From: Marsupella aquatica
Taxonomy: Eukaryota > Plantae > Marchantiophyta
Assembly (NCBI GenBank): GCA_973895155.1
Contig: OZ316895.1
Location: 19,854,803-19,918,802, forward strand
DNA: 64,000 bases
Reading direction: 5' to 3'
The notes under the pieces: model-generated
The model's database searches: none
Told to the model about the DNA's origin: nothing
Seen by the model: only the letters and a program-made list of their open reading frames with translations
Shown here: in pieces, positions 19,029 through 58,480 of the stretch
Layout of the letters: each line of letters begins with the position of its first letter
Numbering within the stretch: position 1 is the first letter of the stretch
Position numbers and translations under genes: made by a program

Positions 19029-22996
<3,968 letters not shown>

Positions 22997-33224: not shown

Positions 33225-33935
33225 TGTATTTTATGACGGAAACAATGACTATTAATCAGGTCTTTTTAACAAAACAATGACGCAATCGTTCTCGTCTTTC
33301 CAGACGCGTCACAACGGACATTTTGGTCACGGTCCTTTTGGAAAAATGACGCTAAAAACATGTGGTCATTTCATACTATCCTAAATGACCGTTTTTATGA
33401 TATGGTCATAAATGCTGAACGTTCCAAAATGACGACACAAATCACCATCGACGGTCAATTGCCGTTGACCGTCGATGGTCCCCGTACCCAATCACACAAC
33501 AACACATGGCAATCAAAAAATAAATAACAGTGGTCATTTTGGACTTGTCCAAAATGACGTACATTATATAACAAATCAAATAGTGACACGTGGTTCAAAG
33601 AGTATTCACCATTTGGCAATATATTTGGGTCATTTTAGACGTGTCCAAAATGACTACGGTATAAACAAGTCATATTGAGACACGTGGTTCAATTGGGAGG
33701 AGGCACGTAAAGATACACATTAGTCATTAATGACATGTCTTGAATGACATAAAGTGAGTCATAGTGGACTTGTTTATAATGACCATGAGAATGGTCATTG
33801 TATATGTCATTCTTTGAATCATTTAGTCTATGTCTTTAATGACCAGAGTTGAGTCATATTGGTCACAAAGATAGTTGTGGATAATGACCATTACATCAGT
33901 CATTCTAGCCAGTCATTCTAGCCAGTCATTCAGGT
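33225..33935. repeat. CACTA subterminal repeat zone (AATGAC/GTCATT motifs in both orientations)
   Basis: Many ATGAC/GTCAT words packed next to the TIR, mirrored at 57630-58845. Confidence 0.8.
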
Positions 33936-34284: not shown

Positions 34285-37154
34285 CTATTGCTTCTTAAGC
34301 AATCTAGAGTTCCATAGGGCATTCATCCCTTTCACATCAGATAATTTAGACTGGTTCTCCCCTGCATTTGGCAAATGGCAATGCCACATCTACAAACACT
34401 TCAATCACACGCACTCGCAAGAAAGGGCTTTCAAAATCTGCACAATGAAACTTACCTTCTCCTGGCAGCCCTGTCACCTCACCTTCTGCCACTATCATGG
34501 AATTGTCCACAACTCTCTTCATCTTCACCAAATCTCCTCTTGCAAACTGTGAACAACACATTTTGTTAAAAATGCAATAAACAGAAATTGAAAGATAGAA
34601 GAACACTCAAATCAAACACACATTTACCTTTGCAATGGGGTTAGGAGACTGCATTGGTTTCTTCTGTGCAGGTGATGCATTTGCTGAGGATCCTTTCTTC
34701 CTTTTCTTCTTTCCCTTTCTAGTTGATGGAGTGTCATCCTGCTCACTTGGAACAGGAGTTTCTTTTGGCAACTCAGATGATTTTGGGGTTACATCTGGTG
34801 TCAACTGATTTGACTTATCCTCTGGCAACTGAAAAGCATCTGAAATGGCTTATTTGGGCAACTTAGATGGCAAAAGGTTCACTTCCAATTCAGTTTGCTT
34901 CAGAGTATTGTTAGCTATGTCAGTTGGTCTTCCTTCCTCCCCTAAAGATGTTGTCATAAAACACACACAAAAGAAATACATAAACAAACATGTATACACA
35001 TATAATCACACTAAAAACATGCAAGAACATTATAAACATGCAATGGCATATACACATCACAATAATTACATTGAATGGACAGTGTATACATGATAGAGAA
35101 TTTTACCTTCATTATCACCTGAAAAAGTAAGAGATCGCTTTCTACTACCTTGTTTGGTAGCTATAGTCAACTTACTGTGACTAGGTACAACTGTTGGAAC
35201 TTGTGCATTACTGGTGTGATGTGCCATCCACGTAGTCATCATGTTTGTCAACTCTCTCACAGTGTCTTTCAACTCATCAACATCCAATTTCACAGCCCCA
35301 ATGGCAGTGATCTCTTCTTTTGAATGTGGGGTCTGTAAATGAACCACAAACCAACACAACATTCTCACTGTCAAACTTACAAACGACACAACACTCTGTC
35401 AAATGGAGAATGATGTACAAATCAAATTGGTATGACAATACTCACAGCTGATCCATGTCTGTTTCCTCGCCCCAGTAAGCTAGCACTTTTACCCTCCCCA
35501 CTTGCCAATGATGGGCTCACCTTTGCTCCCACAAAACTACCAGTCTGACCTTGTGCACTTGCCAATGATGGGCTCATTGTCACCTTTGGCAATGAACCCT
35601 GACTACCATGGTTTTCTTTCAGGTCAGATATACCTGGGCTTGATCCTCTCTTCTGCTTCTATTCAAACACACAATGAATGAGAATCACAGAGTCTATTTT
35701 CATCAAGATTCACAAACAAGACAGAATTGATAGTGAAAATGATACAGGCCACAATTTACCATTCTCTTTGCTGCTGCAACATGCCCTCCTCTTCCAAAGT
35801 GAGAGGTATCTTGCACTCGTGCTCTTTTATCAGTCATCTGTTTACTCAAAGATATCAATGCTGGACTGGTAAAATGAGATACCAAAGCTGCCCATTTCTT
35901 TGGATCAACACCAGATGGCCCAGGTTTGGTTGGATCCTCATTGCAAACTTTCTTCCAGTAACCATGCATTTTATGGCACTCTCTCTTCAATATGCCATGA
36001 CAATGACTCCGGAATTTGGTCTTAATAAATTCCCCACCCACATACTCCCACTCAGCTGCCATGTTATTCCACACTGTGGTTGTATGAACTTGTGGATGAT
36101 CAGTCCATTTTGGCTTTGATACATCAAAGACTCTGAGTACGTTGCCACGAAGTTCCTCCAGCCAGTATTGTTTGTTGCCATCAGAATCATCAATATCATT
36201 GTCATAAATCTGCATTTCACAGACAATGTCAGATCATAACTCTGGAATTTATGCAGAGTCCAGGTTTTATACACACAACAACAGAGAGGATCAGATTTGT
36301 CTAAATCTACATTCAAAAAAAGTACAATACTCACTTTAATGTGTTTGGGAAAATCTCCGCAATCCCTTTGTTGTTTGGCAGTATTATCAAACTGCCTCTT
36401 AGCATGCCTTCGTTCCCTACGCATCTCAGAGGCCCCGCCTGCAATGCACACACATGCATTCAATCAAAAATATGTACATGATTGAAAAGTACAGCAAATG
36501 CACTTGCATATGCATGACGAGCAGATTGTGTATTACCTGAAGATCCTCTAGAATGTAGTACATCAGATTGACCTGATCTGCCTTCAGATGCTGATGGAAC
36601 CACTAAACAAACACACAACACCAAAGCACTTCAATTAATTTCATTTCCAAGTAGAATATCAACTTCCAAACACACCTAAAAAGTAGAACAGTACAATCCA
36701 ATCACTTTCATATAAGAGTCCAGTGTCTGGGTCTTTCCAACATCTCACCAACCCACCTCCACCAGGCCCAGTCTTCTTAGGACCATGATTTTGTTTCTGT
36801 ACCTACATCATGGACAACGTAAGCATATCAACATATAATTTGAAAAAGGGACAAGGATCCCTTCCTATTAGGATGATGAAGTTCAAGCATTACCTGTTAT
36901 TCACTCTCTGGTTTTGACCCTCCAATGTCACAATCCTCACTGTCATACCCAGAAGGAGAACCATAGCCATCATCACCAGACTCTGTCATGTTCACCTTGG
37001 TAACTTCTGATAGTCTAGAGCTCCTCCTCTTTGGCAATGTTTCAGTTGAAGTACCTTTCATCAAAGCAGGCTTTCCTCTCTCTCTTTGTACACGTGTGGT
37101 TGGGCCTCTAAGGAACAAAGCAATCATCAACATACACCAATGCAGATCAAACAT
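34285..37154 (-). pseudogene. CACTA second gene (TnpA/Ptta-like), multi-exon
   Basis: 35703-36215: KWAALVSHFTSP..SLSKQMTDKRARVQDTSHFGRGG (Transposase_24-like). 34346-34550: IVAEGEV..LP..KFH....LRVRVIEV..DVALPF, then LSDVKGMNALW after a frameshift (Tnp1-like C-terminus). Exon structure not fully resolved. Confidence 0.7.
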
Positions 37155-38285
37155 ACATGCAAAATGAATCTACAACACCGTAACACTAGTACTTATGTAC
37201 AGGATCCATACTAGTATGTGACCAATCTGGAATATGAAAACAGAACATGAACCTGACAACTCCATCTACTGAATCAAATTTGCAACAGACATATTAACAC
37301 ACACATCAGCTTGCAGTCTGGCCCCAGTCCTAGATCACGCATAATTTTGACATTATGCTCTATGTTCCGATTTTGGGCCTCCTCATAAGGATTCACAGAA
37401 TGTGACAACCCCTGCAATCTTCTTTTCACAGGCTGCATTCACCAACTGCACAAATGGGTAAACCATTAGTCTGATTTCATATATAGTCCATACATGTAGT
37501 CCATCTATGGACTTCACACACCTAAAACCTATTCATGAATTGCTTAGGCCTGCCCTTTCTTGCAGATCCCTCTACATCTCTGCCTCGTTTGGGACCAGTA
37601 TTTGGTCCTGGATTTGCTCTTGACGTACAGGCCTTAGCCAATTCGATGTGTAATTTGGCATTGTTTTCCATTGTAGCATGGAAATCAACGTCTGTGTAAT
37701 CACCTAACACCCTTGTGGGCCTGGATTCTTTGTGGAGGATTGTTCTCCATGCTATCCCCTTCTCATTGGGGTGGAAGAAAACCTGCTCCACTTGCTTTGG
37801 AAAAACGTAATCCATTTTCTTGGACACACCCAGTTCTCTATGGAAATTCACCTGCCAAAGACCAGACTCGGAATACCTCATACTGGCAGAGGATTTAGGA
37901 GTCCATAATGGATCTGCCCATTTCCCTTTGAAAAGAATCACCTCTTTCCTCAAGTTGCCGTAATTCAGTACCAAGATATCTGTCAAGGCCCCTACATACT
38001 ATACAGATTCTTCTATGGTTGCACCAAACCTGTCCACTCGCTTCTCAGTGGATGTAGAAGCCATCCCATAATCAAAAGTGCTAAAAGCACCAGAATCAAA
38101 ATCACTCAAACACCCCAAGGATGGAATAGTCCTCCAATGGTGCCCATAGGCTCTGCATGCCCTATACAATCGTGCCTTCAAACTAGGTGGTGTGGAGTAT
38201 GCAGATAGTAATGACCGCTCAGACTCTTTCTCAAAATTATGGGTATTGACTAATGTTTGAAACCATTCCCTGAAAGGTGGCAATT

Positions 38286-41200
38286 TGTGAGATAAGGATG
38301 TTTATGAAGGAAGGGTTAACTAGCCATAAATTTTTGAATTTTTAAGTTTAAGATCTCAAATGAGGCTAAAGAGGGACCTGACGACTACTTTGAAGTGTTA
38401 TGAGACTTTCAAGCCCATCTGAGGTCAACCCGGATTGATATTAGAGAAGGAGGATCGACCTGGAACTTTTTGTTATAAGCCTGGAATGAGATATAAAGCT
38501 TATACCGAGACTCTACTCAATAACAGCTGTCCATTGCCAAAGTTTTTAAAACCATAAGTCAAACACAGGCACGACCACAGTAGAATCTGGATATAAGGAA
38601 GGAGAGTCGATCCGGCCTCTCACACCTCTCAAAGCCGAACTTAGTAGGTTTTGAGTTCCCGAGCGCATTAGGCTGTTAAAGCAGTAGAGTGAGGAGGCTC
38701 TACCCTTTTGGTAGAGGATCTTGGGTCCGGATTATAGGACCAATCTTGAATTTCTTGATGAGAGCCTGGATATGAGGGTACTGACTGATTCGTTGTGAGG
38801 GGAATGCCTACTCCGCCGCTGGAAGTGAAGGCAGGAAGTTTGAGATTCTGATTGTGCATACATCGGTGATGAGAAGGAAGGCCAGATCGATCCGGACATC
38901 CACATTGCAGGCCCGTTTGAGTCTATCTTTGCCCCACGTTCGATGCACCTGAATTCTGATTGACGGGATCTTGATCAACGTTTCTAGAAGCGCTTGTCAG
39001 TTGATCAGAAACACCGTAGCCAGGTCGACCCGGACATTTCTACCATTGGTCGACACCGAAGCGATTGACCATTCTGAAGTCTCAGCATTGTAGAGCTCGC
39101 CGACGAGAAGGCAGGCCATTTATTGGGAATCCATTTTCTGCTTCGATAAGTCCTATGGAGCAAGGGACGGATCCAGCCGGAATTTCCACTTCTCGCGTCT
39201 CTAAGGGGCATTCAACCTCAACATCACCTGCACCTACTCCGGTTAAAGCCCCTGTGAGACGATCGAAGAGAAAGGAGGTCCCCATTGCCATGAAAATTCT
39301 GAGGCCAGCTATTCCGGACAGTGAAGCTGAGAAGGTCAAATTGAGGGAGTCTTTGCTCAGGATGGGCTGTGAGTCTCTGATGGAGCTACCCTAGAGTTAT
39401 CAGAGCGAAGATATGATCAGAGAGATCCGATCCAAGGAGTGTCCGGCTGAGTTTAAGGATACCTCCAAAGACCGACCTGAGCGATGGACTCAGATGATGA
39501 TTGTAGGAGCTTTTGTATTGGAAGATGAAGGAGAAGGTCCAGTGGGAAGAGCTGTCAATCTAATCCTTCCTTACTTCAAAGGAGCCATCAACAGTAAGGA
39601 CGGGTTCAATGTTTCTAAGTGTTTGGATCCTGATCTGAGACAAGTCTTCAGCTTTCTGCTACCCCTGCTGTACCCTGAGAAGCCAAGAAGAGTTACTGTT
39701 GGAGTTGGCTCTACCATTGTTGCTGCTTACAAGGGAGAAAGAAAAGTCAATTGGGCTAAGCTTATCTTTGATTTGATAAGGAAGTTGGTACAGAACCTAT
39801 CCAACAAGAGTCCTACTCCCCTATCCTGCTACCTGGTACATCTATATAGCTTTGAAGGAGTTTTGTTCAAAAAGGAGAAGAAATTACTATTGGCCAAGTA
39901 CAACTTCATCAAGTATGGAGAGACAGATCCAGATATCACCCAGGCCACCTCTGATGACAGTGAGGATGAGGAACCAGCAGAGACAAATCCTCGAAAGACC
40001 CGGTCTGCTGCCCGGAACCTCGACCCGGACTTCGTCGATCCGGCTGAATGTCCGGATGCACCCGGCCATGCCTCCCAAGACACCCTAGCTGATTTCCAGA
40101 TCATCTCAGACACGTTCCAGAAGGTGAAGAGGAAGACCACTGTGATGGAGAAGGTCATCACCGACATTTCACAGAAGCTAGGAGTGAAACCAGGGCAGAT
40201 TCTTGAGAAGATCTTCACCATGAGTGATGCCACAGATAAGAAGAAGTTGGAGAAGGAGAATGAGTTCCTCAAGAAGAAGGTATCTGAACTCAAACAGCAG
40301 TTGGAAAGGAGTAAGAAGAAGAATGAGCTTGAGCATACTCTCCAACTCAGTATCACTCAATCTTTGGATCTGATTGAGCCTTTGACTAAAATAGCTTCTC
40401 TGGATCTTCTTAAGGCCCAAATTTATGATGAGTATTCTGCCAAGAACACCACACCCATCCTTTTCTCCAAGATTAACCATTTAGTGGTAGATGTGAGTAC
40501 CAAGGTGGATGATGCACTTACAGGCCTCTCAAAGACCTGTGAAGCCTTAAGGGAGATGAGTGACTTGACTACTGAGGAGCTATTAGCTGATACTGAGATT
40601 CCTCCCTTTACTACCAGATCTTTCTCTCCTAGTCCTCATGAAGGAGTCTATTCCACTGGCCCCTCATCACCCCTCAACCCTCCTGGTTTCCCCACTCCCA
40701 GTACACACTTCCACTCTCATTCTTACACCTATTCTCATGACCCAAGTGCCCATCAGGAGAACATGGATATTGACCCGTCCATCCCTTTTACCACTGGTCA
40801 GCAGGGAGTTTACCTTCGGCCAGAACCCCTTGCTATGGCCAACCCTGAGGAGGATCCTTCCCAGAAGATAGGACCTGAATAGAACTATATTTAGAGAATT
40901 AGAGCCACATTAGTTTAGACCTAGAAATGGCTATGTAGACTAGTATATGAGTAAGTAGACTCCAACATTTTGTTGATATATCCATTGTAGTCTCTACTCT
41001 ATTTTTGACTAGGATAGTTTACTTTTATTTACATACTTCTTTAGACTTGGGTTTTGAAAAGGCATGTCTTTTCATAATCTCCACTTTTAGTACAAAAGGA
41101 GGAGAACCCAAAGTCAACCGGGAGGAGAGAGATGCATTTGATTTCCCCATTTTGATTTTGGATAAATCTATGTCTTTTCTTCCCTTCTTTTTACCATGGT

Positions 41201-41869
41201 TGAGTAAAAGGAAGAAGTTTAGCAACCCTTGAGTTGTTGTGAAATGTTCAATGAATGCTAGAGTGTGCCTATAATGATATTGGAAGATCAATGAGATTTG
41301 TGACCAATACATTTGAAAGATTCACCAAAGAGGAAATTGACATTTGCACAAACTCAACCAAGCAATCTTAAGGATTGTAGGAGAAGTAAACCAATTCGAG
41401 TATCCTAGTACCGTCTTAAGCAAGACCAGAAAAGTGTCCCGGGTTGATTTACATTGTTGTCTTCTAAATTCAATAGATGGAGAAAAGTTGCTACGAGAAA
41501 TCAAAAAGCATAGAAAATGTTGATTTCTGAATCTTAAATTAGGCCATAATCCTTATTGAAGGAGTGGTGATGGTCAAAAATTCAATTCCCTTGCACTTTG
41601 AAAACTCCTATCTACTCTCTCTCTAGTTTAAATTTTTGTTAATTCTAGTCTTTATTATTGCACTGTGAGTCCTAAGGATTACCCACTTGAGTTTGTGGTT
41701 AAACACTTATGTTAAGAAGGTCATTAAAAATCTTTCCAATCTAAGAATGTTGGTGTAAACTTCTCAAATCGTGTTAATTAGGTCTTTTCGATCTTATCCA
41801 CTCCTAACCAGAACAAAATCGAGTTGTTAAGGAGTAAATAGTCATTTATCTCTTTATCACCTTGCTACA
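38286..41869 (+). mobile_element. 3584-bp solo-LTR-like element (TG...CA, TSD CAATT) carrying a long ORF
   Basis: CAATT at 38281-38285 and 41870-41874. Ends TGTGAGATAAGG...CCTTGCTACA. Excision restores the transposase frame (..PADCQE/LPPFREWF). No gag/pol and no internal direct repeats seen. Confidence 0.85.
39155..40882 (+). pseudogene. LTR-internal ORF (~575 aa) with conserved retroelement-accessory N-terminal domain and coiled coil; one TGG>TAG stop
   Basis: ORFs 39065-39394 and 39413-40882 are in the same frame. The stop at 39392 aligns to W in the paralog (LMELP*S vs LLTLPWS). Coiled coil KKKLEKENEFLKKKVSELKQQLE. Confidence 0.75.
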
Positions 41870-44800
41870 CAATTCTTGGCAGTCAGCGGGAAATTCCACT
41901 GGTTTTCTTTGATTGGCAGGCTTCCTCATCCATTCCTTCCGGAAATCCACTCTTCATTTGGTAACAGTCTCATTGGTAGCATCATATATCTTGCATGGCA
42001 ACAACAACACTGAAGACATTAGTGCATGATCCACCATGAATATACAAACACAATGGGGCAACATAATTTAGGGTTTATGTACCTGTACCATGGAGCCACT
42101 TTCTCTTCATTCTCCAATATATAATGATGCATGGCCATCATTTCAGACCAATCCAAAGTTATCGCCTTTGCAGCCCCTTCCAAAACAATGCCTGCAGTGC
42201 CAGCATCCTCCTCCAACTCCCAGGTTTGTTTTCCCTCTTCCTTTGCATCAATCATGTATTCAAAAAGGAATCCCAAAGACTCATCTAATACATAGCCTTC
42301 AGCCATAGAAGCCTCTGGATGTGCCTTGTTTTGTACATAACCCTTCAATACCTTCAGGTTCCTCTCTATTGGGTACATCCATCTGCCTGTAACTGGGCCA
42401 CACAAGTCTAATTCCTCCACTAGGTGAATCATTAAATGGGTCATGACATCAAAGAAGCTTGGTGGAAAATGGATTTCCAAAATGCAGAGAGTGAATGCAA
42501 CATCCATCATCAAATTCTCATACATTGAAGGGCCCCACACCTTTGTACAGATCTGGCGATAGATATTGCTCACCCCAGCTATGGCCAAGCGAACCCCTTC
42601 ATCAAGTAATCCCATTGTTGCCAGAGGGAGAATCTGTTGCATGAGTTGGTGGAAATCATGTGATTTCAACCCAGAGAGTTTCTTGGATTTTGTAACACAC
42701 TTTGCCAAAGAACTTGAAAAACCAATGGGCCCTTTCAAGGTCAATAAAACCTCCAAGAACCTTGTTCTTTCCTTCTTGCTCAGGCAATATGGGGCTGGGG
42801 GCATCAACAATTTGTCATCGTTACGCTTGGGAGCTGGATTGGGTACAAGCCATAGGTGTTGGCGCACCTGTAAGAGCTTCATGTCTTCTCTCATAGAAAG
42901 AGTGTCCTTGGTCCCAATGATAGTGTGCACAATGTTGTGTGCAAGATTCTTCTCATAGTGCATGGGATCTAGACAATGGTTAATGAGTAGTTTCTGCAAT
43001 GGACACACAATTCAGAAATTAGGGCATTGAATACAACTTTTGGCATCAATGGGCAGTAGTTTGTGCAGTGGACACAATTCAGAAATTAGTGCATTGAATA
43101 CAACAATTACAAAATCTGGGGTACAGGAACTATATGAAGAGAATATATTTCAAAGTCATATGAAGAGATTGCAGAAATTCATTGTAGTAGTATGGAGTCT
43201 TACATTCCAATAGGGCAACTTGTACAGACCAGTAGCCCTCTTCACTCCATGCACCTTTATGGGGCATTTCTCATCCTCAACCTTGGTTCCTCCCTTCTTC
43301 AAATATTCTGTTGTCTCGTCTCCCCACTTCTTTCTATCAGAGCTTGTCATTCTACACGGTGTAGGTCGACTCTCAATTGCACCATCAAAGTATTGTGCAC
43401 TGTCTGGTCTACGAAAAAGATGCCTTGCTGCTAACCATCGACTTGGCATTCTCACCCCTAAAGAGCATGCAACCTTTCTCACAGACAGGGATTCTCTCAT
43501 AATCCAAGCCAAGCTTTCTCAATAGCTGCTTTGCAGCATATAAGTTCTTGGGCAGATTATGCTCTGCAGGCATACCATGCTCCCCCATCAAAGACAACAA
43601 TGCATTCACTCCTTTGTTTGAGAATCCATGGCCATGACAGATGTTCAGCAGAAGCAACATGAATGACACAACATCTATTTTGCTGCCTGGGAACAAAGGT
43701 TGCATTGCTGCATTTAAAGATAACTGTGCAGGAGCAGTCTCCATAGGAGTTTTAGAGGTTTCAAGGGGGTTTACAGGATGGGCACCTCCTTCACTCTCAT
43801 CATCCCCAAGTACAAAATCCAAGTCAAAATGGTCCTGATCATCTAGTTCATGCTCAGGGGATTCTTCATTGGTTCTCAGCAACGTTTCTTCTAGTAGAGC
43901 CCTGATATGTTCTTCGACATCTATAGTTGGATACTCTGGAACATCCACAGTTGGATACTCTGGAACATCTACAAATAAATGTTCTTCAACATCTACAGTT
44001 GGCTGTTGTGCACAGGATGCCTGCTGAAGGTTTGCTACCCTCAATGCCTCAGGGCCATGTTGTGACATGTAGTCAGCACCCCACTCTTCATCAGAAGAGT
44101 CCTATCCCTCTCCCACCCACACTTGACATGCAGGGTACCGACCATGTTTAATAAGGTGCAGTCTAGCAGTATTCCGATTAGTCCTATAATTCCCTTTGCA
44201 GTTCACACAAGGGCAGTACATCTTATGGTCCCCACTCTTGTGGCGAGCCTTCTGTTCTCGAACCCACAAAGCATCGTCACGATGTTGTACTCTAGCTGGA
44301 TGGAAGAGTGGCAACTTTGGAGTTCTACCCACACCTAACGTATTCTGTGGCAATTGTGCCATGCTAGCTTGATTGAAATTGTATTCAAACTATGATTTTC
44401 AAACTAAATCAGTGTGACATGCATACAAAATTGGGCCTACCGTCACAATTGTACAACCGATGCCAACCACAGTCCAATTGCTCAAACCCATAGAGCCCAG
44501 TTTCTCAAATCCACTGTAGTGGGGCACCTTCTCCTTCTTGCATACAAATAGAGCATCACATATAGTGTCATCAGAATGATACTATGAACGTAAATCTTTG
44601 TGCCTTCATCATTTCCAGTATTTGTTTGCCTATTAGGAATGTGAGCAGACAGGTTTGGAATAAGTAATGTTTGTGACACCAGTGACAAATTTACAAGTGA
44701 AGTTTAGACATCAACAATGACCCGAGTCACACTCAAAGCACATGCATGAAAATCAGAATCTTACCCTGGAAAAGATAGTAAAGTTGATTTCTCAAAATTA

Positions 44801-44962
44801 ATTGCCTCAATCCGCAATGCATTGTCGTAGAGTGTGTATACATGAGGAGTTCATCAAACTGCATATAAATAGTCCACATGTTTTAGCACTCTGAAAATTG
44901 TTGAAGTCCACGTGAAACCATCAAAAAACTCTATCTCAAGTTTGTGTTCCATCCAGCCTCAA

Positions 44963-45622
44963 TCAAATCCAAGATATGTGGCTCCTAGCAGGAGTGCCTA
45001 GTGTAGGGTCAATGTCATGGTCAGGACAGTAAACACATCCCCTCTTGGGCTGCCCATGCGCTGAGTGATCCCAAATTGTCCGATCATGGGCAAATCCCCT
45101 CTGCTGGATAAATAGCAGGCAGTCCTTGTGCCATGCCTTAGGACACCTCATGCACTGAACCAAAAAGCCATTAGCCCCATCATTGGGCCCTTGTCCACAA
45201 GTAAGACAAATATGGAGTCCACATGATGCTGTGCCAGGAACCAAACACTGCTGACAGTAAAACCGGGCACATAGAGGGTCTGGACATTTTCTTACCTCTT
45301 CACCCATTTTTCCAGACACATGACACTTAAAGCAAGAATGTTCCTCATTCTTGCAATCGACACAAAGCCATTCTCCAACATGGCCATCAGCCAGGGATAT
45401 AGTTGGGCATAGCCATTGCTGACCCAAAGGACAGGAAACATTCTTATGGAAATGTCGGTGGCAAGGCCCATCACAAAAAATGAGATCCCCTCCCTCATCA
45501 CAAATCGCACATACATGTGGACTATTCTGGTTAATCTCAATGTCTGAGTATAAGGACAATTGAGGTGCTTGAGAGGATTCACCTCTACAACGATTTGTGG
45601 CCTTCTGCTTATTGCGAGCCAT
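44963..45622 (-). CDS. EDM2-like composite PHD-finger protein (~219 aa) inside the CACTA element
   Basis: VCAICDEGGDLIFCDGPCHRHFH..C..C..WLCVDCKNEEHSCFKC..VRKCPDPLCARFYCQQC..CGLHICLTC..VQCMRCPKAWHKDCL..RTIWD..VYCPDHDIDPTLGTPARSHISW. This parallels, from recall, the EDM2 PHD region (CAICDNGG..CEGSCLRSFH..HQCFIC..CPLHKC..CRRCPKSYHRKCL..RAWD..YC.EHEID..L.TP.RDH). Open, intronless frame. Confidence 0.85.
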   Translation of the reverse strand: MARNKQKATNRCRGESSQAPQLSLYSDIEINQNSPHVCAICDEGGDLIFCDGPCHRHFHKNVSCPLGQQWLCPTISLADGHVGEWLCVDCKNEEHSCFKCHVSGKMGEEVRKCPDPLCARFYCQQCLVPGTASCGLHICLTCGQGPNDGANGFLVQCMRCPKAWHKDCLLFIQQRGFAHDRTIWDHSAHGQPKRGCVYCPDHDIDPTLGTPARSHISWI

Positions 45623-47744
45623 GGTCCTGCACACTCAGACCCTACATCAGATTATGAAACAAGAAGGAATAACAAGGTGCAGCATGACACACAAGAATGA
45701 GGGTGCAACATAAAATATGACATGTAACCACAAGGGTGCAGCATAAACCAATGCTTTATGGATGGCAAAGCATTTAGGACTGAGCAGCGCAAATAACCTT
45801 GGCCTATGATTGGAAGCAATCACAATATTGCAACCTGTATGCCTTCGCTTGCTGTACAGCAGTGCTCACTCACCCTGCCTTTTTAAAATCTGTAAGGGCA
45901 ACACAGAACAAATAGCAATTGAGTTTCAGCAAAGCATTCATTTGGCTCTCAAGTTTTAAAATGGACAGAGCAAACACAACAATGTGCACAACAAAGCATA
46001 GAGAGCAACAAAACTCCAGCAAACTTGGGACTCAGGCAAGAGATACAAATTTTAGCAGCAAAATCAAATCAAGATTTGGACCTGTAAGTTCAACATGCAA
46101 TGCTCAGTCACCCTGCCCTTTTTTAAATCTGTAAAAATCAAGTTTTATTGCGTGCCTTCTACATCTTAAGTTGCTGCACACATCTGTTACAGAACCATAA
46201 GTTGCTGTACTCTCAACAAGCTGCTGGTCCACCCACTTTTTCAAAAGCTGCACCGTACTCTATCTTTGTGTAGTCGTGGCATTACCGGGCTGCTGTCAGA
46301 GACCCTTACAAAGAATTTAAAATTGACCAAGCTGATTTTAGTTTAGTTTCGTCCAGTTTGCAGACCAAAGGAAATCATGTGTGAACGTCAAACAGTTAGC
46401 TGTAAATTACCATAGTTGAAGAGCAAAGCTTGTACAAAAGCCACTGAGGAATTCTCTGAGGTGGCACAGTAATTGGCAAACCACACACGAAACTCTGAAA
46501 CTTTTTGGCGACAGAATTCTATAGAGTCGCTGCTGGAATCCAGTGAGGATTCACCATACATGCTTGCACTTCTCTTCAGTAAAAAAAAAGTTGCTGAAAG
46601 TGCCAACGGCAGGGAGACAAAAAGTGAAGAAATGAGAAGTCTTTGGCACATTGATAACCAGTGTGGTCCTCGGACTTCAGATGCAAGAAAGGAAATGGAA
46701 GAGACAAAAAAATCTGTGAAAGAAAGTAGAGCGCAACAGAGATCCAACATACGCAGATTTGGACTGTGGGAACAGATTTTTGACGCAGATTTTCCAGCAA
46801 GGGTTAGCAAGTAGTCTAGTACTTACTAGTACTTACATTGTTCGATCGCAGCTCACTCATTCAAAGGAAAACAAATCCTCAAATTAATGCTCTACATTGC
46901 CTTTTTCCTCATGCATGGATAGAGCCAATGTCTGTTGAGAATCTTTTACAATTGTTTTGAAGCAAAGTACTTGCTAGACGGCCTGGTCGCTCATACAGAG
47001 CAAAACAATGAATGAACTTACCCCACGACAGAGCACTTAGCTACTCACTATGACATCAATATCACCATTCTTATTTTGTCAAAGATAAGGAAATTATCTT
47101 AGGGCTTGAATTTTTAAGTAGAAGAGGAAGTGCACTTTAGGGTGTTCGAAAATTCTCCGATGTGTTTGTTAGTAAAGTCCACAGTACCACAAATTGCCAC
47201 AACTTATGGTTGCCATTGAGCGAACATTACTAGTTGGATGGATTGTGATAATGGTGATGGCCCCACCCTCATAGCTGCCGATTGCTACGTTCAGGCATTG
47301 ATCAAAACGGAATATCAATCAAACGTATATGAAACCCTCAGTCTACGGTTAGCCGGCACTTTCATCCAAAGAGTGTGCTTTTCACCATTCAAATCAAATT
47401 CCGCAAACTATAACAGACAAGCACAGTTGGCAATTGATAGACCAAGCATAGTGCCCTGAAACAGACTACAAATCAGCAATAGAACTCACTCTGCATTCCT
47501 CCCAACAGCCCTAGATTATTGTGAGTAGAATGGAACGGGATTTTTATTGGTGTTCAACATAAGAAATCTGTCTCTAGATGTGGACACTCTAGAGGCTCTA
47601 GAAGAGAAAATTCAGTGTCACAGAATGAAACGCGGTGGCAATAGCATGCAGCAGAACAAATCTCTTTGTGGGAAATGAGAAGCTTGACTCCCAATTAAAG
47701 TCCCAAAAAGACAAGAAGCTCACTCTACGAATGGAGATGGAGGG

Positions 47745-48135
47745 GAACCCGTCCTTCGCTCGCAGCTTGTCCTCTGCTCGCAGCTCAGCCCAAGCTCGTC
47801 CTCCGCTCGCAGCTCAGCCTCCGCTCGTCCTCCGCTCGCAGCTCAGCCTCCGCTCGTCCTCCGCTTGCAGCCCGAGCTCGTCCTCCGCTCTCCGCTCGTC
47901 CTCCGCTCGCAGCCCGAGCTCGTCCTCCGCTCTCCGCTCGTCCTCCGCTCTCCGCTCGTCCTCCGCTCTCTGCTCGTCCTCTGCTTGCAGCTCGTCCTCT
48001 GCTTGCAGCTCGTCCTCTACTTGCAGCTCGTCCTCTGCTTGCAGCTCAGCCCTCCGCTCATCCTCTGCTCGCAGCCCGAGCTCGTCCTCCGCTCTCTGCT
48101 CGTCCTCTGCTTGCAACACGTCCTCCGCTCCTCAC
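47745..48135. repeat. GC-rich minisatellite of ~18-nt units (CTCGTCCTCCGCTC...)
   Basis: About 20 degenerate units. They generate the SSSA / AEDE low-complexity ORFs in several frames. Confidence 0.9.
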
Positions 48136-49819: not shown

Positions 49820-52800
49820 TGTAATAGCTGTCTAAATTAGAAACTTAGAAATAATGAAAACTTTAAAAAAAATTGTAGTTAGAAATAGATTAAACATAGC
49901 CAATTAATCTACTTTTAGATATGTAAGGTTAAGACTTAGTTAGGCAGATTAATGGATAATACCCTGAGTAATTAGGTAGGGGTGAGACGAGTCAGAAGAA
50001 ACTACTATCGATGTCCTCAAAGCGCGAAAGGAAGATTGGTGCTGCCACGTTTGACTGTGGGCGCAAAGAGCGTTTTGGCGCAACAGCGCAACGGCGCTTT
50101 GGAGCGAAAGCGCAACAGCGTATCGGCGGAAAAGCGCAACGGCGTTTTGGAGCCAAGGCGCAAGGGCGCAAAGGCGCAATAAAGCGAAAGGGCAACGGCG
50201 GATCACTTGGCATTGCTCTCTCTCCGGATCGATAGTTGGTGACAACGCCTTGTTTCTTGTTACTATGGCAGACGAAGGGGGAGAGATGACCGCGAGAGGA
50301 GTTCCTCTACCTAAGGCCGTCCCTGTGACATACCCTACGATGAAAAGAAGCTTGCACGTTTTGAAGGAAGCACTAGCGGTCATGCACCTGAGTAAATTAC
50401 TCACTCTGCCTTGGTCTGCAACTTCATTGAGTTTTCTGAAGGATTTCAGTGATGGGGCACAAATTGAAGTCGGTATGGTGGGAACTGCTCGGGCAAATCC
50501 AAAATTCTGGACTCTGCAATTTGTTGCTGATGCTTTTGACTGTCCCGCCGAAGGCGACAGCTTACACTCACGACAAGGGGAGATTGCGAGGCCTTATTTT
50601 TCTGGAACTCGAAACGTTCGCCATGGATGGAAAATGGATCAGTGCACCGATTATACTCTCAAAATCATTTTAGAGTTTTTGATTCCAATTCTCCATCCCA
50701 TCCGTCCACATATGATACCTGTGTCACTTGCCAATACTATTGTGGCAAGTTGGAAGGGAGTTGCTCAGATAAATTGGGCCTTGTTGCTAAGACAGGTTAT
50801 TTTATCTCAAGTAAAGAAGGTGAAAATGGACGAGTTCACTACTCTCCCTTCTTATCTTTGCCAATTGTACTTTCATGGAAATTGCTTACTTTCAGGCGAA
50901 CAAGAGGAGCGGATCAGACTGCTTGATGAATTTGATCTTAGTGAGTCAGGAAACGAGGATACTGAAGGAGAAGATGCTGATGAAGTCCAACCGGAGGTTC
51001 CCCCACCTATCTGTTCAGAGGTTACCCCTCTTACCCATAGAGAACCACTTGTGGAACCCAGAAGCACCTCTTCACCAATTCCTGATAACCCACTATCCCC
51101 TTTCGAAGATCTCAATCAGGATAGAAGACTTTACACCCCCCTCAATTCCAATCTTGATGAGTATACATTCAAGCCAGAACCAGTAGGAACGTCCCCACCT
51201 TTTGTACCTGTAGTTGACATATCTATCCCTAATACTCTTCGATCACCCACAGTCCCAACTCAGAATTTATCTGTAGACAGCTTGACCCCTTCTATGAGAT
51301 CCCGTAAGAGACCCTTCATGTTCAGCAAACCAACGGTTGATGAACTGAGAGTAGAATCTAATCAGCAAATTATTGATAAGTTAAGCAACTTATTGATCTG
51401 TGAACCTGAGGAGATAGTTGACTCTGTTGAGAGGTTAAGAGCAGCCTCTGTAACTCTGCCTGAACCTAGTAGTCCCGACTCTCCATACTCTCCAACCCAA
51501 GGACCGACTCAGTTCTATCCCGAAGTGATGGAGCTATTTCGACCCACCTCCAATATTAGGGTTACAAATATTGCTGAAGCTGAACCAATGGAGGAAAATG
51601 ATGCATCACCCAGGTTAGAGCTCCAACAGACACTATTTGCTTCCCCAGGTCACTTTGCTGAACACTATTCTACTCTTGTTAATAAAATGGCTGACATGCT
51701 AGAGTGTGATGAGAGACACTTAATTGATGTCTTGGATGATCTTTTGTGTAAGACATCAGCTTTACTTACCCGAGATCATCATCAAGAATATTGTGAGGAT
51801 TTAGTCCACAGGCTTACACAAATTTTCGGATGCAACCGGAAACAAGTCTATTATGCCGTCCGTTATCATACCTCAGCCTCTGGCTCTCCCATTTACTATT
51901 CTTCCCCTTCTTCCAGTCATTCACCCACCTCTCCTTACAGTCCTTCGAATCAACCAGACCAGCTCTATCCTAGTTTTCCAGAGCCTGAGATCACCCCTAC
52001 AGGTGAACATCTTGCCACTTCTTATCCTGACACCCTTCCACCAGGTCAAGATCAATCCTGCCAGGTCAATTTCATCCCTACACTGCATATTAACCCTAAG
52101 ACCCCTCAGGAGAATATTACACAATTTGCTGAGTTTGTTAGAGTTTCAGACCTTAGAACTCCTCCCATTTTAGAGTTTTGGCAATACTATCATAAGAAGA
52201 GAGTTGAATGTCTCTATATCCTGAAGCTTCATCTGAAGGATGTCACCCGCCTAGAGATAGCAGAGATGGATGAGATCTGGACAGAGGCTAAATATTTTCG
52301 TCCTATTCTTGCTGTCATAATCCTGGTTGGACACATTGTATTGGAGAATGGAGATCTGGCCCTGACATACTTCGGGAACTTACCTGCCTATGTCTTGGAA
52401 TTCATCATCAACTTTTTGAGACAAACCAACAAACGATATCAGGTCGACCATGGTGTTCTACCAGAGAAACCTTTTATTGTTCAACAATTTATCCACCAGT
52501 TGCTGAGAGTCAGAGAATTTGGAACAACATCACTTCCCAATGGTTGACTGATTACACCTTGAAATGGCGAGAACTGTTACCTCGTGTCACCCCACTTCTG
52601 TCACTTGCCAAGGACTCTGACACCTTCATCAACAAGTTTCCACGCAACTACCATACTACTTGTTGTAGTTATGACTTGGTCGGCATCTATATGCAAGCTA
52701 GCAAGGTGAACACTATGTTTCACAGTAGAATACTTCCCATTCTAAATGCTGAACGACAAATCAGGTCTCTTCCATTTGCTCAACATGATACACAAGCTAT

Positions 52801-54335
52801 GGATTTCCTTCGAGAGGTGATTCAAACCGAGACATTCAGGAGAGTTCAACAACTGGACCAGTCAGCACTACTTCAGGAGGATTGATCTACTCCATCCTTT
52901 GAGTCAGGATTAGTCAATCTCCATCATTTTTGTTAAATAGTTATCATAGTTAAAAAAGTCTCATACTTTTTTAGGAAATAGCCCTTATGTAGTAGAATCT
53001 CCCCTGAAAGTATCGGCTTAAACCGACATGTCGTTTAGAAGATATGACATTTTTAGTTTTGCTTAAGCGTAAAAGCGCAAAGGCGCAACGACGCTTCCGA
53101 CACTTAGAAAAATTTCTGGAAAAGTGTATTTTATATCTGACAGCACTTTTCATCAATTTTATTAAGGCACTTAGACACCTCAGAAAAGTCTAAAATTTTT
53201 CCAGCATGAAGCATGTATATAAATCTTCTATCTAGTAAAGTTTCACCCCATTTTAAATTTTATGTTAGAAATTATAATTCCGATAAACTCACTATTTATT
53301 AGTTTTACCACAAAAGTGCAAAAAACACTTTTACTCCAGTTTACACTAGGGATAACTTTTAGTTAGTTTTTCATTCCAACAACATTCTAGTGAACCTTGA
53401 GTACTCTTATAGCATATTTTCATACTTTTTACTTTAGTTTATGACCCTTAAGATGTGAAAGGGCATGTCCTTTCATTATCTCTTTTCCCCTTTAGTTTCT
53501 GCTAGCCTATATGTAGTAGAGTTTTTGCCACTTTTAGTGTGAAGAAATTTCATGAGCGCTCAGTTGCAAGATTACAACTTTGTTACCTCCATTTGTAGCA
53601 AGCACTCCATTGCATATGAGTACTTAATACAAAGGAATTCTTCCCCTTCAAGTCTAAATGAATGAGAAGTTTGGACCTTTGAAGTAAAATTATTGTGAGT
53701 GTTAAATCTTTTGAGTATGTGGAAATAGATTACTTGTTGGTGATGTTTCACATATTCCTTAGTTCTTGATGCATAGTTTTTGACGTGACATTGCTTGTGC
53801 ACGGGATACAAAGATTGTTACTTATCAATTACTTATGGCTTCAAATTTGATTATGATGGTGTCTCTTATTTGTGACACAAAGTACCGATTGGATACAGAA
53901 GTGATTGATTACTAGTCTCCACTCAGTACCTTGGAAGGAAAAGTTGAGACATGTTGACGGCATTTTAGTAATCATCCTAGTACCGTAATCCTTTCCAGAA
54001 ATGTTCTTGCGGATATACCACCTAAATCATATCAAATGAAGTTATGTTGAGGAGTCACCTTGGTTGTTTCCTAACTCCCTCACCATACCTCAAGGTTTTC
54101 ATTGTGTTTTATTAATTGTTTCCATTTATTAATTTTATTTACAATGTCAAGCAGACATTTAAAACTATGCCTTGCTGAGCAACCATAGTAAAAGGCTCCA
54201 CCTTTGTGTTTTTGTTACCTTATTCATTCATAAGTGCTAAATCATAGAAAATCATTCCTTTCATGTTCTTCCATGGGAACGAATACCGAGTTTTGGATCT
54301 TAAATGTTCATTTATGTCCCAAGTGTGATACTACA
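49820..54335 (+). mobile_element. 4516-bp solo-LTR-like element (TG...CA, TSD CCTTC) carrying a long ORF
   Basis: CCTTC at 49815-49819 and 54336-54340. Ends TGTAATA...TACTACA. Its removal restores a normal 580-bp unit. No gag/pol. Confidence 0.87.
50265..52547 (+). CDS. LTR-internal ORF (760 aa), paralog of the 39155-40882 protein; may continue to 52885 across a frameshift
   Basis: Open frame from MADEGGEM. Shared blocks with the other ORF: WT, PYF.G, FL.P.L.P..P, TIVA..KG, NWA.L, YL..LY. Confidence 0.75.
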   Translation: MADEGGEMTARGVPLPKAVPVTYPTMKRSLHVLKEALAVMHLSKLLTLPWSATSLSFLKDFSDGAQIEVGMVGTARANPKFWTLQFVADAFDCPAEGDSLHSRQGEIARPYFSGTRNVRHGWKMDQCTDYTLKIILEFLIPILHPIRPHMIPVSLANTIVASWKGVAQINWALLLRQVILSQVKKVKMDEFTTLPSYLCQLYFHGNCLLSGEQEERIRLLDEFDLSESGNEDTEGEDADEVQPEVPPPICSEVTPLTHREPLVEPRSTSSPIPDNPLSPFEDLNQDRRLYTPLNSNLDEYTFKPEPVGTSPPFVPVVDISIPNTLRSPTVPTQNLSVDSLTPSMRSRKRPFMFSKPTVDELRVESNQQIIDKLSNLLICEPEEIVDSVERLRAASVTLPEPSSPDSPYSPTQGPTQFYPEVMELFRPTSNIRVTNIAEAEPMEENDASPRLELQQTLFASPGHFAEHYSTLVNKMADMLECDERHLIDVLDDLLCKTSALLTRDHHQEYCEDLVHRLTQIFGCNRKQVYYAVRYHTSASGSPIYYSSPSSSHSPTSPYSPSNQPDQLYPSFPEPEITPTGEHLATSYPDTLPPGQDQSCQVNFIPTLHINPKTPQENITQFAEFVRVSDLRTPPILEFWQYYHKKRVECLYILKLHLKDVTRLEIAEMDEIWTEAKYFRPILAVIILVGHIVLENGDLALTYFGNLPAYVLEFIINFLRQTNKRYQVDHGVLPEKPFIVQQFIHQLLRVREFGTTSLPNG

Positions 54336-57300
54336 CCTTCTTGTAGTCATTGGCATTTATGACGGTCCGTTGGTCATATATGACCCAATGAAGGCCCTAG
54401 TACCTCCAAAGAGAGCCCCCAATAGATTCCTTGCAAGGTTGGAATATTCCTATTTCCTAAACCCGCACCCACACTATATAGGGAAGAACGACTCCCCTGC
54501 CCATTCCATTGGTGCAGCACCACCTCTTGGAGAACCACAAAACAACTTTTATTTGCCTTTTGGATGTGATGGTGTGCATGCATGGTAACACTTTTGGCAA
54601 ATCACTCCAAAGTCGTACAACTTGGGAGTGATTTCCCCAAAGGTGCATCATGCCTTAAGTAAATGCAAAAACATGTGTCCAAAGTGTTTATGTCGCAACT
54701 AGTGGTTGGACAATGATGAGTATAGTGTCCCGCACCTAGTGGAGGGGTTCTCACCTCTATGTAGGGCCACATGGCACTCTAGGGCCCACCTCCAGTCCCT
54801 AGCCCCAAACTGGTCATTTGTGCTTTTCCTTAATGACTGCACAAGGGACCCCTCAAATGACCCGGTCACAACTGCAGTCATTAGACTTATATGACTGCCC
54901 ATATGACAGTTTTAATGACCCTACTTGTAGTCACTGGCATTTATGACAGTCCATTGCTCATATATGACCCAATGAAGGCCCTAGTACTTCCAAAGAGAGC
55001 CCACTTTAGATTCCTTGCAAGGTTGGAATATTCCTCTTCCCTAAACCCGCACCCACACCATACAGGGAAGCACGACTCCCCTGCCCATTCCATTGGTGCA
55101 GCACTACCTCTTGGAGAACCACAAAATAACTTTTATTTGCCTTTGGATGTGATGGTATGCATCCATGGTGACACTTTTGGTAAATCACTCCAAAGTCGTA
55201 TGACTTGGAAGTGATTTCCCCAAAGGTGCATCGTGTCTTAAGTAAACACAAAAACATGTGTCCAAAGTGTTTATGTTGCAACTAGTGGTTGGACAATGAT
55301 GAGTATAGTGTCCCGTACCTAGTGGAGGGGTTCTCACCTCTATGTGGGGCCCCATGGCACTCTAGGGCCCACCTCCAGCCCCTACCCCCAAAATGGTCAT
55401 TTGTGCTTTTCCTTAATGACTGCATGAGGGACCCCTCAAATGAGAATAATTCAGGTCATTCCGCTTATATGACATCCAATGTGACCATTTTAATGACCTT
55501 TCTTGTAGTAATTGGCATTTATGACAGGCAATTACTCACATATGACCCAATAAAGGCCCTAGTACCTCCAAAGAGAGCCAGCTTTAGATTCCTTGCAAGG
55601 TTGGAATATTCCTATACCCTAAACCCGCACCCACACCATGCAGAGAAGCACGACTTCCCTGCCCATTCCATTGGTGCAGCACTACCTCTTGGAGAACCAA
55701 AAAATATGTTTTATTTGCCTTTGGATGTGATGGTATAATCCATGGTTGAACTTTTGGCAAATCACTCCAAAGTCGTACGACTTGGGAGTGATTTCCCCAA
55801 AGGTGCATCATGCCTCAAGTAAACACAAAAACACGTGTCCAAAGTGTTTATGTTGCAACTAGTGGTTGGACAATGATGAGTATAGTGTCCCGCACCAAGT
55901 GGAGGGGTTCTCACCTCTATGTGGGGCCCCATGGCACTCTAGGGCCCACCTCCAGCCCCTAGCCCCAAAATGGTCATTTGTGCTTTTCCTTAATGACTGC
56001 ATGAGGGACCCCTAAACTGACCACATATCCAGTCATTTGACTGATATGACTCTCCATATGATATTTTTAATGACCCTACTTTTAGTCATTGGCATTTATG
56101 ATGGGCCATTGCTCACATATGACCCAATAAAGGCCCTAGTACCTCCAAAGAGAGCCAGCTTTAGATTCCTTGCAAGGTTGGAATATTCCTATACCCTAAT
56201 CCCGCACCCACACCATGCAGAGAAGCACAACTTCCCTGCCCATTCCATTGGTGCAGCACTACCTCTTGGAGAACCACAAAATATGTTTTATTTGCCTTTG
56301 GATGCGATGGTATAATCCATGGTTGAACTTTTGGCAAATCACTTCAAAGTCGTATGACTTGGGAGTGATTTCCCCAAAGGTGCATCATGCCTCAAGTAAA
56401 CGCAAAAACACGTGTCCAAAGTGTTTATGTCACAACTAGTGGTTGGACAATGATGAGTATAGTGTCCCGCACCCAGTGGAGGGGTTCTCACCTCTATGTG
56501 GGGCCCCATGGCACTCTAGGGCCCACCTCAAGCCCCTAGCCCCAAACTGGTCATTTGTGCTTTTCCTTTTAATGACTACATAAGGGACCCCTCAAATGAC
56601 CACAAATCCAGTCATTAGACTGATATGACTCTCCATATGACAGTTTTAATGACCCTACTTTTAGTCATTGGCATTTATGATGGGCCATTGCTCACATATG
56701 ACCCAATAAAGGCCCTAGTACCTCCAAAGAGAGCCAGCTTTAGATTCCTTGCAAGGTTGGAATATTCCTATACCCTAATCCCGCACCCACACCATACTGA
56801 GAAGCACGACTCCCCTGCCCATTCCATTGGTGCAGCACTACCTCTTGGAGAACCAAAAAACAACTTTTATTTGCCTTTGGATGTGATGGTATGCATGCAT
56901 GGTGACACTTTATGCAAATCACTCCAAAGGTGCATCATGCCTCAAGTATACGCAAAAACATGTGTCCAAAGTGTTTATGTTGCAACTAGTGGTTGGACAA
57001 TGATGAGTATAGTGTCCCGCACCTAGTGGAGGGGTTCTCACCTCTATGTGGGGCCCCATGGCACTCTAGGGCCCACCTCAAGCCCCTAGCCCCAAACTGG
57101 TTATTTGTGCTTGTGTTTAATGATTGCATGAGGGACCACACAAATGACCACAAGTCCAGTCACTTGACTTATATGACAGTCCATATGACAAATTTAATGA
57201 CCCTACTTGTAGTCATTGGTATTTGTGATGCAAATGTTTTTAGAAATGACCCAATAAAGATTACACTAGCTCCTTGAATGCCCCATCACTATTTATTTGC

Positions 57301-57707
57301 AAATTAAAATATTCCCCATCCAAACACCGGCACAAACATGACACAATTACAACAAAGGATGACAACCTTCCATTGGTATTGCCCTACTTCTTGGAGAGAC
57401 AAAAAGGTTTCATTTGCCTTTGGATACGGTAGTATGCGCGCATCTATATATGGTGACACTTCTGGAAAATCACTCCAAAGGTGTATGACTTGGGAGTGAT
57501 TTCCCCAAAGCTAGGTGCATCATGCCTAAAGTAAATGCAAGACATGTGTTGAAATTACTAATGTGCCAACCAGTGGGAGGACAATGATGAGTATTGTGTC
57601 CCGCACTTAGTGGAAGGGTTATCAACTATATCAATGACTCTACAATTATGACCGGTGTCTAGAATGACTATTGAGTATTTTAATCTTCATATCTCTTGGG
57701 TTCTTTA

Positions 57708-58480
57708 ATGACTCTATAAGTAGTCATTTATGCAATAAGTCCATAATGATTGTATGTTATTGTAAACATTGATATATCATGAGTTTTAGATTGACCCTAT
57801 ATTTAGTCATTTATGCAACAAGTCCATAATGACAGTATGTTGTTGTAAACACCGATATATCCTAATTTCAAGATTGACCCTAGAGTTAGTCATTTATGAG
57901 AGAAGTCCATAATGACGGTATGTTCTTGTAAACACTGATATGTCCTAATTTCAAGATTGACCCTAGAGTTAGTCATTTATGAGAGAAGTCCATAATGATG
58001 GTATGTTCTTGTAAACACTGATATGTCCTAATTTCAAGATTGACCCTAGAGTTAGTCATTTATGAGAGAAGTCCATAATGACGGTATGTTCTTGTAAACA
58101 CTGATATGTCCTAATTTCAAGATTGACCCTAGAGTTAGTCATTTATGAGAGAAGTCCATAATGACGGTATGTTCTTGTAAACACTGATATGTCCTAATTT
58201 CAAGATTGACCCTAGAGTTAGTCATTTATGAGAGAAGTCCATAATGACGGTATGTTCTTGTAAACACTGATATGTCCTAATTTCAAGATTGACCCTAGAG
58301 TTAGTCATTTATGAGAGAAGTCCATAATGACGGTATGTTCTTGTAAACACTGATATGTTCTAATTTCAAGATTGACCCTAGAGTTAGTCATTTATGGGAG
58401 AAGTCCATAATGACAATATGTTGTTGTAAACACTGATATATTCTCATTTTCAGATTGACCCTATATTTTGTCATTTAACA
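57708..58480. repeat. 83-bp tandem array (~9 copies) in the CACTA subterminal region
   Basis: TTGACCCTA at 57791, 57874, 57957, 58040, 58123, 58206, 58289, 58372, 58455. Central copies are nearly identical. Confidence 0.95.

Follow-up and report, generated by a model that had tools for sequence, protein, structure and literature searches.

The maize Spm protein TnpA is a TE anti-silencing factor and, like VANC21 and the PMD proteins, a sequence-specific DNA binder. The counter-silencing factors described for plant TEs act via DNA sequence, and histone mimicry has so far been described for viral and host proteins. Known H3 N-terminal mimics (H3TMs) are defined by an initiator Met followed by [AGSCTPV]-R-x-K, a pattern present in 48 of 20,996 human proteins (PMC8166343). 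TE-borne chromatin readers include chromovirus chromodomains, PHD domains in CR1, DIRS and other elements, and CopiaMBD (PMC6673714, bioRxiv 2021.11.30.470311). A survey counted 823 TE-chromatin fusions, mostly with PHD and Chromo domains; neither CACTA nor EnSpm appears in the available part of its main text (bioRxiv 2021.11.30.470311), and PHD is absent from the available passages of PMC13547354. The plant protein EDM2 was pulled down by H3K9me1/2/3 peptides (PMC6208443). It recruits ASI1 and AIPP1 (AAE complex), thereby suppressing proximal polyadenylation, and contains methyltransferase-like (ELP), acidic and N-terminal RFD-like domains (PMC7529245).

Here we describe a gene within a CACTA element that encodes an EDM2-type triple-PHD module preceded by an H3-like tail. 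As in the known TE-borne readers, a host reader domain was captured and retained by a transposon. However, the described readers are fusions with TE enzymes, mostly of retrotransposons, and the PHD gene is a separate EDM2-type ORF in a CACTA element. Like VANC21 of VANDAL21 (PMC8616336) and the PMD proteins, it is an extra DNA-transposon gene proposed to act on the element's own chromatin. The literature searched gave no CACTA-borne PHD or EDM2-like gene, no transposon-encoded histone or H3 mimic, and no H3 mimic fused to a PHD reader. The PHD gene is real, selected and, as a variant of the TE-borne chromatin readers, apparently undescribed; its H3-like tail adds to its interest.

A dead CACTA copy with a stand-alone PHD gene

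The window, i.e. the whole stretch of 64,000 nucleotides that was analysed, contains a 25.7-kb element (Table 1), which was assigned to the CACTA/EnSpm family because of its terminal inverted repeats (TIRs) and its transposase domains. AATGAC/GTCATT words are enriched at both element ends, as in subterminal repeats of the CACTA/EnSpm type. On the left, the AATGAC-rich region extends to about 34000, with 21 such words in 33001-34000. The right subterminal region is unusually long; tandem units of 577 bp, whose palindromic cores resemble CACTAGTG, lie at 49300-57640, and an 83-bp array of 9 copies lies at 57721-58477. A 3-bp target-site duplication was sought at the CACTA ends and none was found, since the flanks differ (CCT left, GCG right). 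One intact insertion is therefore less likely, and the ends may stem from two copies or have undergone mutation.

The transposase domains are spread over several broken frames on the minus strand. Transpos_assoc and DUF4218 (5.8e-34) were above the Pfam cut-off, Transposase_21 and DUF4216 below. Because of the frameshifts and stops in the transposase and the 3.6-kb insertion that splits it, this copy is dead. The exon-like pieces downstream of the transposase had no Pfam support; from their position alone, they would belong to a second (TnpA-like) gene.

Table 1. Features of the CACTA element and its PHD gene (positions in the window)
Feature	Position	Strand	Remarks
Left CACTA TIR	33209..33240	+	23/32 match to right TIR
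Exon-like ORF pieces	34350..37169	-	downstream of transposase
Transposase (TnpD-like), 3' part	37522..38285	-	DUF4216 E 6.7e-5, below cut-off
First nested TG..CA insertion	38286..41869		3.6 kb; 5-bp target duplication; splits transposase
Transposase (TnpD-like), 5' part	41875..44362	-	Transpos_assoc, weak Transposase_21, DUF4218; frameshifts and stops
Stand-alone gene, H3-like tail and EDM2-type triple-PHD module	44963..45622	-	219 aa
H3(1-9)-like motif, codons 2-10	45593..45619	-	5/9 identical here, 7/9 in P0001
Pair of similar micro-exon-like units (16-17 nt, between an acceptor and GT)	45875..46129	-	predicted spliced 5' leader, from sequence motifs
GC-rich 18-bp tandem array	47793..48130		in 5' region of element
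Second nested TG..CA insertion	49820..54335		5-bp target duplication; inside 577-bp subterminal array
Right subterminal region	54336..58833		577-bp and 83-bp tandem arrays, AATGAC-rich
Right CACTA TIR	58834..58865	-	starts CACTAG, as left TIR does

The empty-site joint of the first nested insertion (38280->41870) was seen in four of four runs of relatives. No terminal repeats were found inside either TG..CA insertion (3.6 and 4.5 kb). Each contains a long ORF (495 and 830 aa); the two are related (29% identity, E 3e-25) and gave no useful Pfam match. In appearance, the insertions are protein-coding solo LTRs of unusual length. The 5' region (46464-49200) shows no CpG depletion (o/e 0.67), and its depth figures in relatives are far below those of the rest. 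The 18-bp array within it is reminiscent of the GC-rich downstream control region of Spm. One contig of run X3 (record 16) crosses the left element junction (window 33000-33246) with zero differences; this run thus has the same insertion site.

The minus-strand frame of the PHD gene is open from 45634 to its stop at 44963, with the ATG at 45622. The earlier note had described an open, intronless ORF of about 219 aa between the CACTA TIRs, co-oriented with the transposase and about 600 bp upstream of it. Indeed, the frame is intact between the outer TIR ends at 33209 and 58865, and the first ATG of the transposase, at 44362 on the same strand, follows the PHD stop after a 600-bp gap. The ORF itself is uninterrupted. 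However, an acceptor-like AG lies 5 nt ahead of its ATG, and together with the micro-exon-like units upstream this makes a spliced 5' leader likely, so that "intronless" would hold for the coding part only. A compensated -1/+1 pair at 45034/45038, 4 nt apart, changes Met-Phe of the relatives to Cys-Val here; it may reflect two genuine mutations or a fault in the assembly.

The triple-PHD module contains 24 predicted zinc ligands. In the HMM comparison with PHD families, PHDvar_NSD (E 7.8e-7) and PHD_NSD (2.6e-6) were above the curated Pfam cut-offs, PHD and PHD-1st_NSD below. AF2 with an 80-row alignment gave a pLDDT of 88.7 and a pTM of 0.84, with residues 1-17 disordered and undocked; with only 5 sequences the pLDDT was 45 and the model unusable. 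The earlier view that the protein consists almost only of the PHD module is correct as to the triple PHD, but overlooked the disordered H3-like tail of residues 1-17. The C-terminal motif quoted there is present, but four further residues follow it, so it is not the end of the protein. No DNA-binding domain was detected.

Among solved structures, the best matches by sequence were the NSD2/NSD3 PHD cassettes (E 1.7e-12), together with PHD5-C5HCH (PDB 29hg, 7cro, 9gbf, 4gng), with partial coverage; unlike NSD2/NSD3, the PHD protein has no SET or PWWP domain. Fold matches were PZP and PHD5-C5HCH domains, all partial (Foldseek TMq at most 0.31), the best structural match having a Z of 5.5 and an rmsd of 2.5 A over 75 aligned residues. 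The ESM Atlas held generic NSD-like PHD clusters only (best 0.90, Streptophyta). No solved EDM2 module was seen among these partial matches, which is no proof of its absence. As a natural variant, the protein makes the EDM2 PHD module accessible in compact form.

The PHD protein belongs to a family of stand-alone proteins, probably close to short liverwort EDM2-like paralogs

Searches for proteins of near-equal length returned 4 and then 10 proteins, with local identities of 33-81%. A profile search against 1.84 billion representatives yielded 578 matches at E 0.001, of which the top five were stand-alone proteins of 166-245 aa, followed by EDM2 and EDM2-like proteins. The stand-alone homologs have 210-245 aa and about 40-80% identity; those checked lie on Logan, JGI or ENA contigs, the longest of 1-13 kb. 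Frameshifts or truncations occur in several, which would suit TE copies in decay. Within the family, a CACTA context is established for close relatives alone. A metagenome scan for the context of homologs yielded two loci from 135 pattern matches, both SET-domain NSD-like and unrelated to CACTA. For viral contigs the yield was 0 of 43, and for prokaryote genomes 0 of 84.

The stand-alone homologs formed one clade in three trees, the first of them without outgroup, and had 100/100 support in the careful tree, which comprised 30 rows as a chosen subset of about 165 proteins (tree labels 'algal' and 'nongreen' are our own; P0070 is Chlorella). The clade has a long stem, and its internal branches are as long as those among land-plant EDM2s. 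The careful tree placed it on the streptophyte side (92/92), as sister to short EDM2-like proteins of Marchantia (MPTK1_1g03210, MPTK2_3g02940, MPTK1_4g03050), Riccia (KAL3685775) and Calypogeia (CAM6087769) with 81/86 support, compared to 51 in the quick tree. An AU test did not reject a grouping with non-plant NSD-like modules (p=0.26). The grouping with host EDM2 paralogs is thus tentative.

Residues shared with the liverwort paralogs favour these as relatives. The motif V-[QHA]-C-x-R-C..W was found in 11/11 stand-alone and 8/8 short proteins, the latter having V-Q-C..W-H, and in 0/64 full EDM2 proteins. In addition, all 11 stand-alone and 6 of 8 short proteins end about 20 residues past the last ligand, whereas at least 373 residues follow in full EDM2. 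Judged by these sequence characters, the PHD gene most likely stems from a short liverwort EDM2-like paralog rather than from full EDM2. The host of the element would accordingly be a liverwort, and the RAF1 gene beside the element marks it as a land plant. The earlier suggestion of a trimmed capture finds no support in that form: as these nearest host relatives already end just after the PHD module, little C-terminal trimming was needed.

The module differs from that of EDM2

EDM2 and the short liverwort proteins have the same triple-PHD module and the [YF]C..H..TP..H signature, with 31-36% identity to the PHD protein. The assignment as EDM2-type made in the earlier note stands, based on the alignment of the 24 ligand positions (one His->Cys), the C-terminal signature and the tree. 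The PHD protein is probably EDM2-derived, but it is not an EDM2, since it has 219 aa only and lacks the methyltransferase-like (ELP), acidic and N-terminal RFD-like domains; also unlike EDM2, it is transposon-borne.

Compared to the host proteins all ligand positions are retained, with the His->Cys exchange at residue 123, as are Asp51, Trp85 and the G-G-D-L strand. PHD2 is shortened by deletion of an insert. Before Cys38, host proteins have on average 4.5 acidic residues per 12 (62 rows) and family members 1.8 (14 rows), and the former acidic patch is now a conserved F-[TS]-x-x-E-x-x-Q-x-x-x-H segment (Glu29, Gln32, His36). In many PHDs, acidic residues at this place hold unmodified K4. The specificity of the module probably differs from that of EDM2, and canonical H3K4me0 or H3K9me2 reading may be lost. 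In particular, the H3K9me2 specificity of EDM2, on which the earlier note had drawn, cannot be assumed, because the module lacks the acidic patch ahead of PHD1 and has a rebuilt PHD2.

The PHD gene is conserved in relatives

Sequence of relatives was available from public runs, 8 of 10 of which contain part of 44400-46400. No RNA run was among these 10, which speaks neither for nor against expression. All 30 bins of 33000-49800 were covered in four of four runs, representing three organisms. A single contig of 1204 nt (44522-45725) covers the complete ORF together with 440 bp of spacer on the transposase side, and differs at 37 letters. The depth of this contig (701) is similar to that of contigs elsewhere in the element (750, 800), which is only a hint of family-wide presence because depth is no copy number. 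In one run 345 contigs lay on the ORF and in another 21, with variants at partial frequency and no joint. Run X7 gave one ORF piece and run X8 none, which does not prove absence. The -1/+1 pair at 45034/45038 was the only indel listed among the ORF contigs, and there was no net frameshift.

Selection was assessed on 19 of the 20 listed variant sites, omitting 45036, which falls between the two shifts of the -1/+1 pair. The two codon-9 changes were scored as replacements, and the synonymous expectation was that of the same base changes elsewhere in the ORF. Synonymous changes made up 13 of the 19 sites in the relatives' contigs compared to 6.1 expected (p=0.0009), corresponding to a rough omega of 0.2; this rough counterpart of the dN/dS check proposed in the earlier note speaks for purifying selection. 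Furthermore, 23-24 of the 24 zinc ligands were retained in 10 of 10 homologs, at 32-82% identity elsewhere. With a CpG o/e of 0.22, the ORF resembles the transposase (0.18) and not the host gene RAF1 (0.51); such a depletion would fit long residence in methylated DNA. Taken together, the PHD ORF is very probably a selected gene of the element.

The N-terminal tail resembles histone H3

The tail of the family follows the profile [AST]-R-x-K-x-x-A-[KR]-K, of which the window copy lacks Lys9. The window protein shows the iM-Z-R-X-K start that defines H3TMs such as PCLAF and VRK1, and the family extends the likeness to H3 beyond this start to Ala7-K/R8-Lys9. Influenza NS1 (ARSK) and G9a (ARKT) are further mimics. 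The known cases are host or viral proteins (PMC8166343), whereas here the tail is transposon-borne and joined to a PHD reader.

The H3TM start pattern was found in 7 of 21 family leaders as deposited, the window protein included, and 2 more fit it from an inner Met. By comparison, it occurred in 0 of 112 long homologs and in 1 of 136 ATG-started ORFs of the window, the PHD ORF itself. The mean best BLOSUM62 score of the 21 leaders to H3(1-9) was 16.9 vs 10.0 +/- 0.74 when shuffled. None of 2000 composition-keeping shuffles reached the leader mean, a p-value that is overstated because the leaders are related and that concerns a motif noticed before the statistical test. Host pre-PHD and N-terminal stretches had mean scores of 6.8 and 5.2, and a score of 20 was reached by 0.08% of 14,549 basic 9-mers from long homologs vs 10 of the 21 leaders.

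The H3-like motif is absent from 4 of the 21 deposited leaders (P0002, P0003, P0011, P0161), in some of them possibly owing to start-codon choice. These four were omitted from a 17-row profile, which was anchored on R/K-x-K alone. In this profile, position 1 is A/S/T in 15 of 17 rows and Gln is modal at position 5 (5/17); Ala7 is present in 12, K/R8 in 13, Lys9 in 8 and Pro3 in 6. In about 6 homologs the motif is set back by 7-8 residues and thus has no free A1 amine. A phmmer search with the N-terminal 23 residues of P0001 against the PDB gave no match at E 10, the query being too short to inform. As 11 of the 112 long homologs also start with M-A-R, the pattern may be partly inherited. Such starts, several of them M-A-R-T, are seen in liverwort, Selaginella and algal EDM2 or EDM2-like proteins (P0016, P0017, P0019, P0021, P0022, P0026, P0030). 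It is possible that the M-A-R start of the host EDM2 family is a short H3-like self-ligand.

Proposed function and alternative explanations

We tentatively propose that this conserved CACTA gene encodes a counter-silencing factor composed of a triple-PHD reader and an H3-tail decoy. The PHD protein would probably bind chromatin or H3-like peptides. The balance tips slightly towards a tail that works as an H3 mimic, and a net role in counter-silencing has somewhat less than an even chance. According to this model, the gene would be expressed from a spliced leader off the 5' promoter of the element, and removal of the initiator Met would leave a free A1-R2-x-K4 end. The PHD module would bind nucleosomes or H3 tails with a specificity altered from that of EDM2, and host H3-tail readers and writers would bind or methylate the tail. 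Where the module sits on chromatin, the tail could thereby divert silencing factors or bait activating ones. More speculative, and to be regarded as doubtful, is the wider scenario of an old CACTA lineage, probably of liverworts, with an EDM2-derived reader and a counterfeit H3 tail on which the host H3K4/H3K9 machinery would act as writer and reader.

With a captured EDM2-type reader joined to an imitation of the H3 tail, the range of histone mimicry would come to include transposons. If true, this would be the first transposon-encoded histone mimic and would place anti-silencing at the level of histones, not of DNA sequence. The small, well-folded protein would also be suited for experiments on the ways in which transposons of early land plants counter H3K9/H3K4-based silencing.

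Alternatively, the PHD protein might tether the transpososome to a chosen chromatin state in the manner of chromovirus chromodomains, with the tail regulating or linking it. Co-orientation with the transposase and selection on the gene would agree with integration targeting, as would the fact that TE-borne PHD and chromodomains are widespread and some of them steer integration (bioRxiv 2021.11.30.470311, PMC6673714). However, the targeting readers known so far form part of the integrase or transposase, whereas start and stop of the PHD ORF are its own and are conserved among homologs, and tethering needs no H3-like tail. We consider this role unlikely.

A shade less probable is a selected reader whose tail is no decoy for host enzymes. 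The tail could be a ligand of the protein itself, for auto-inhibition or in a head-to-tail oligomer, or could serve in nuclear import or as a basic arm that binds DNA. The order of the residues matters beyond composition, as seen in the shuffles, and the frequency of high scores among basic 9-mers is far below that among the leaders. The conservation of Ala7, no feature of an NLS, also runs against the expectation for such a signal. Still, the tail is basic and disordered, Pro stands at position 3 in 6 of the 17 rows and Lys9 is found in just 8, and in one subgroup the motif lies inside the protein. An M-A-R start is also seen in bryophyte EDM2-like proteins, and the gain of the tail was accompanied by changes in the residues ahead of PHD1, which would suit a non-decoy function.

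We regard it as improbable that the gene hijacks the EDM2 pathway, its module acting as a competitor or imitator of EDM2 at H3K9me2 and altering polyadenylation so that the element's transcript reads through to the transposase. Such a role is suggested by the EDM2-type module, the position upstream of the transposase on the same strand, and the peptide pull-downs and ASI1/AIPP1 recruitment reported for EDM2 (PMC6208443, PMC7529245). But the remaining EDM2 domains are all absent, the nearest host relatives are the short liverwort paralogs and not EDM2, and the module has lost its acidic patch and has an altered PHD2. Read-through via ASI1/AIPP1, an option raised in the earlier note, is unsupported at this locus.

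The chance is smaller still that the PHD ORF forms one exon in a longer, spliced gene for a TnpA/TnpD-like protein. All 11 homologs compared share the Met-start region and stop 17-25 residues past the last zinc ligand. The search among longer proteins, in itself weak evidence, found only host EDM2-like ones (2 of 1778 candidates). These findings weigh against the acceptor-like AG before the ATG, the micro-exon-like units upstream, and the donor- and acceptor-like sites within and after the ORF, from which such an exon could be construed. Finally, a neutral Pack-CACTA passenger, i.e. a captured host fragment without a role, is highly improbable: such capture is known (PMC8616336), the copy in the window is dead, and frameshifts or truncations affect several homologs, but the single neutral copy that the earlier note had held against its own claim is contradicted by the ORF in runs of three organisms, the synonymous excess, the ligand conservation at about 40% identity, the deep clade on a long stem and the TE-like CpG depletion.

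Neighbouring sequence

Host genes beside the element are uninterrupted ORFs of RAF1 (25609-27258, plus strand) and of the Yippee family (29039-29551, minus strand). RecQ-like exons near 22000 were judged by translation alone. Decayed Gypsy-, Copia-, LINE- and Harbinger-like fragments, judged by their translations, are located at 10161-17331 and 5307-5774. On the other side of the element, a small element with 41-nt inverted ends lies at 60548-60967, adjoined by a degenerate AAGATGT-rich tandem region at 61350-62350.
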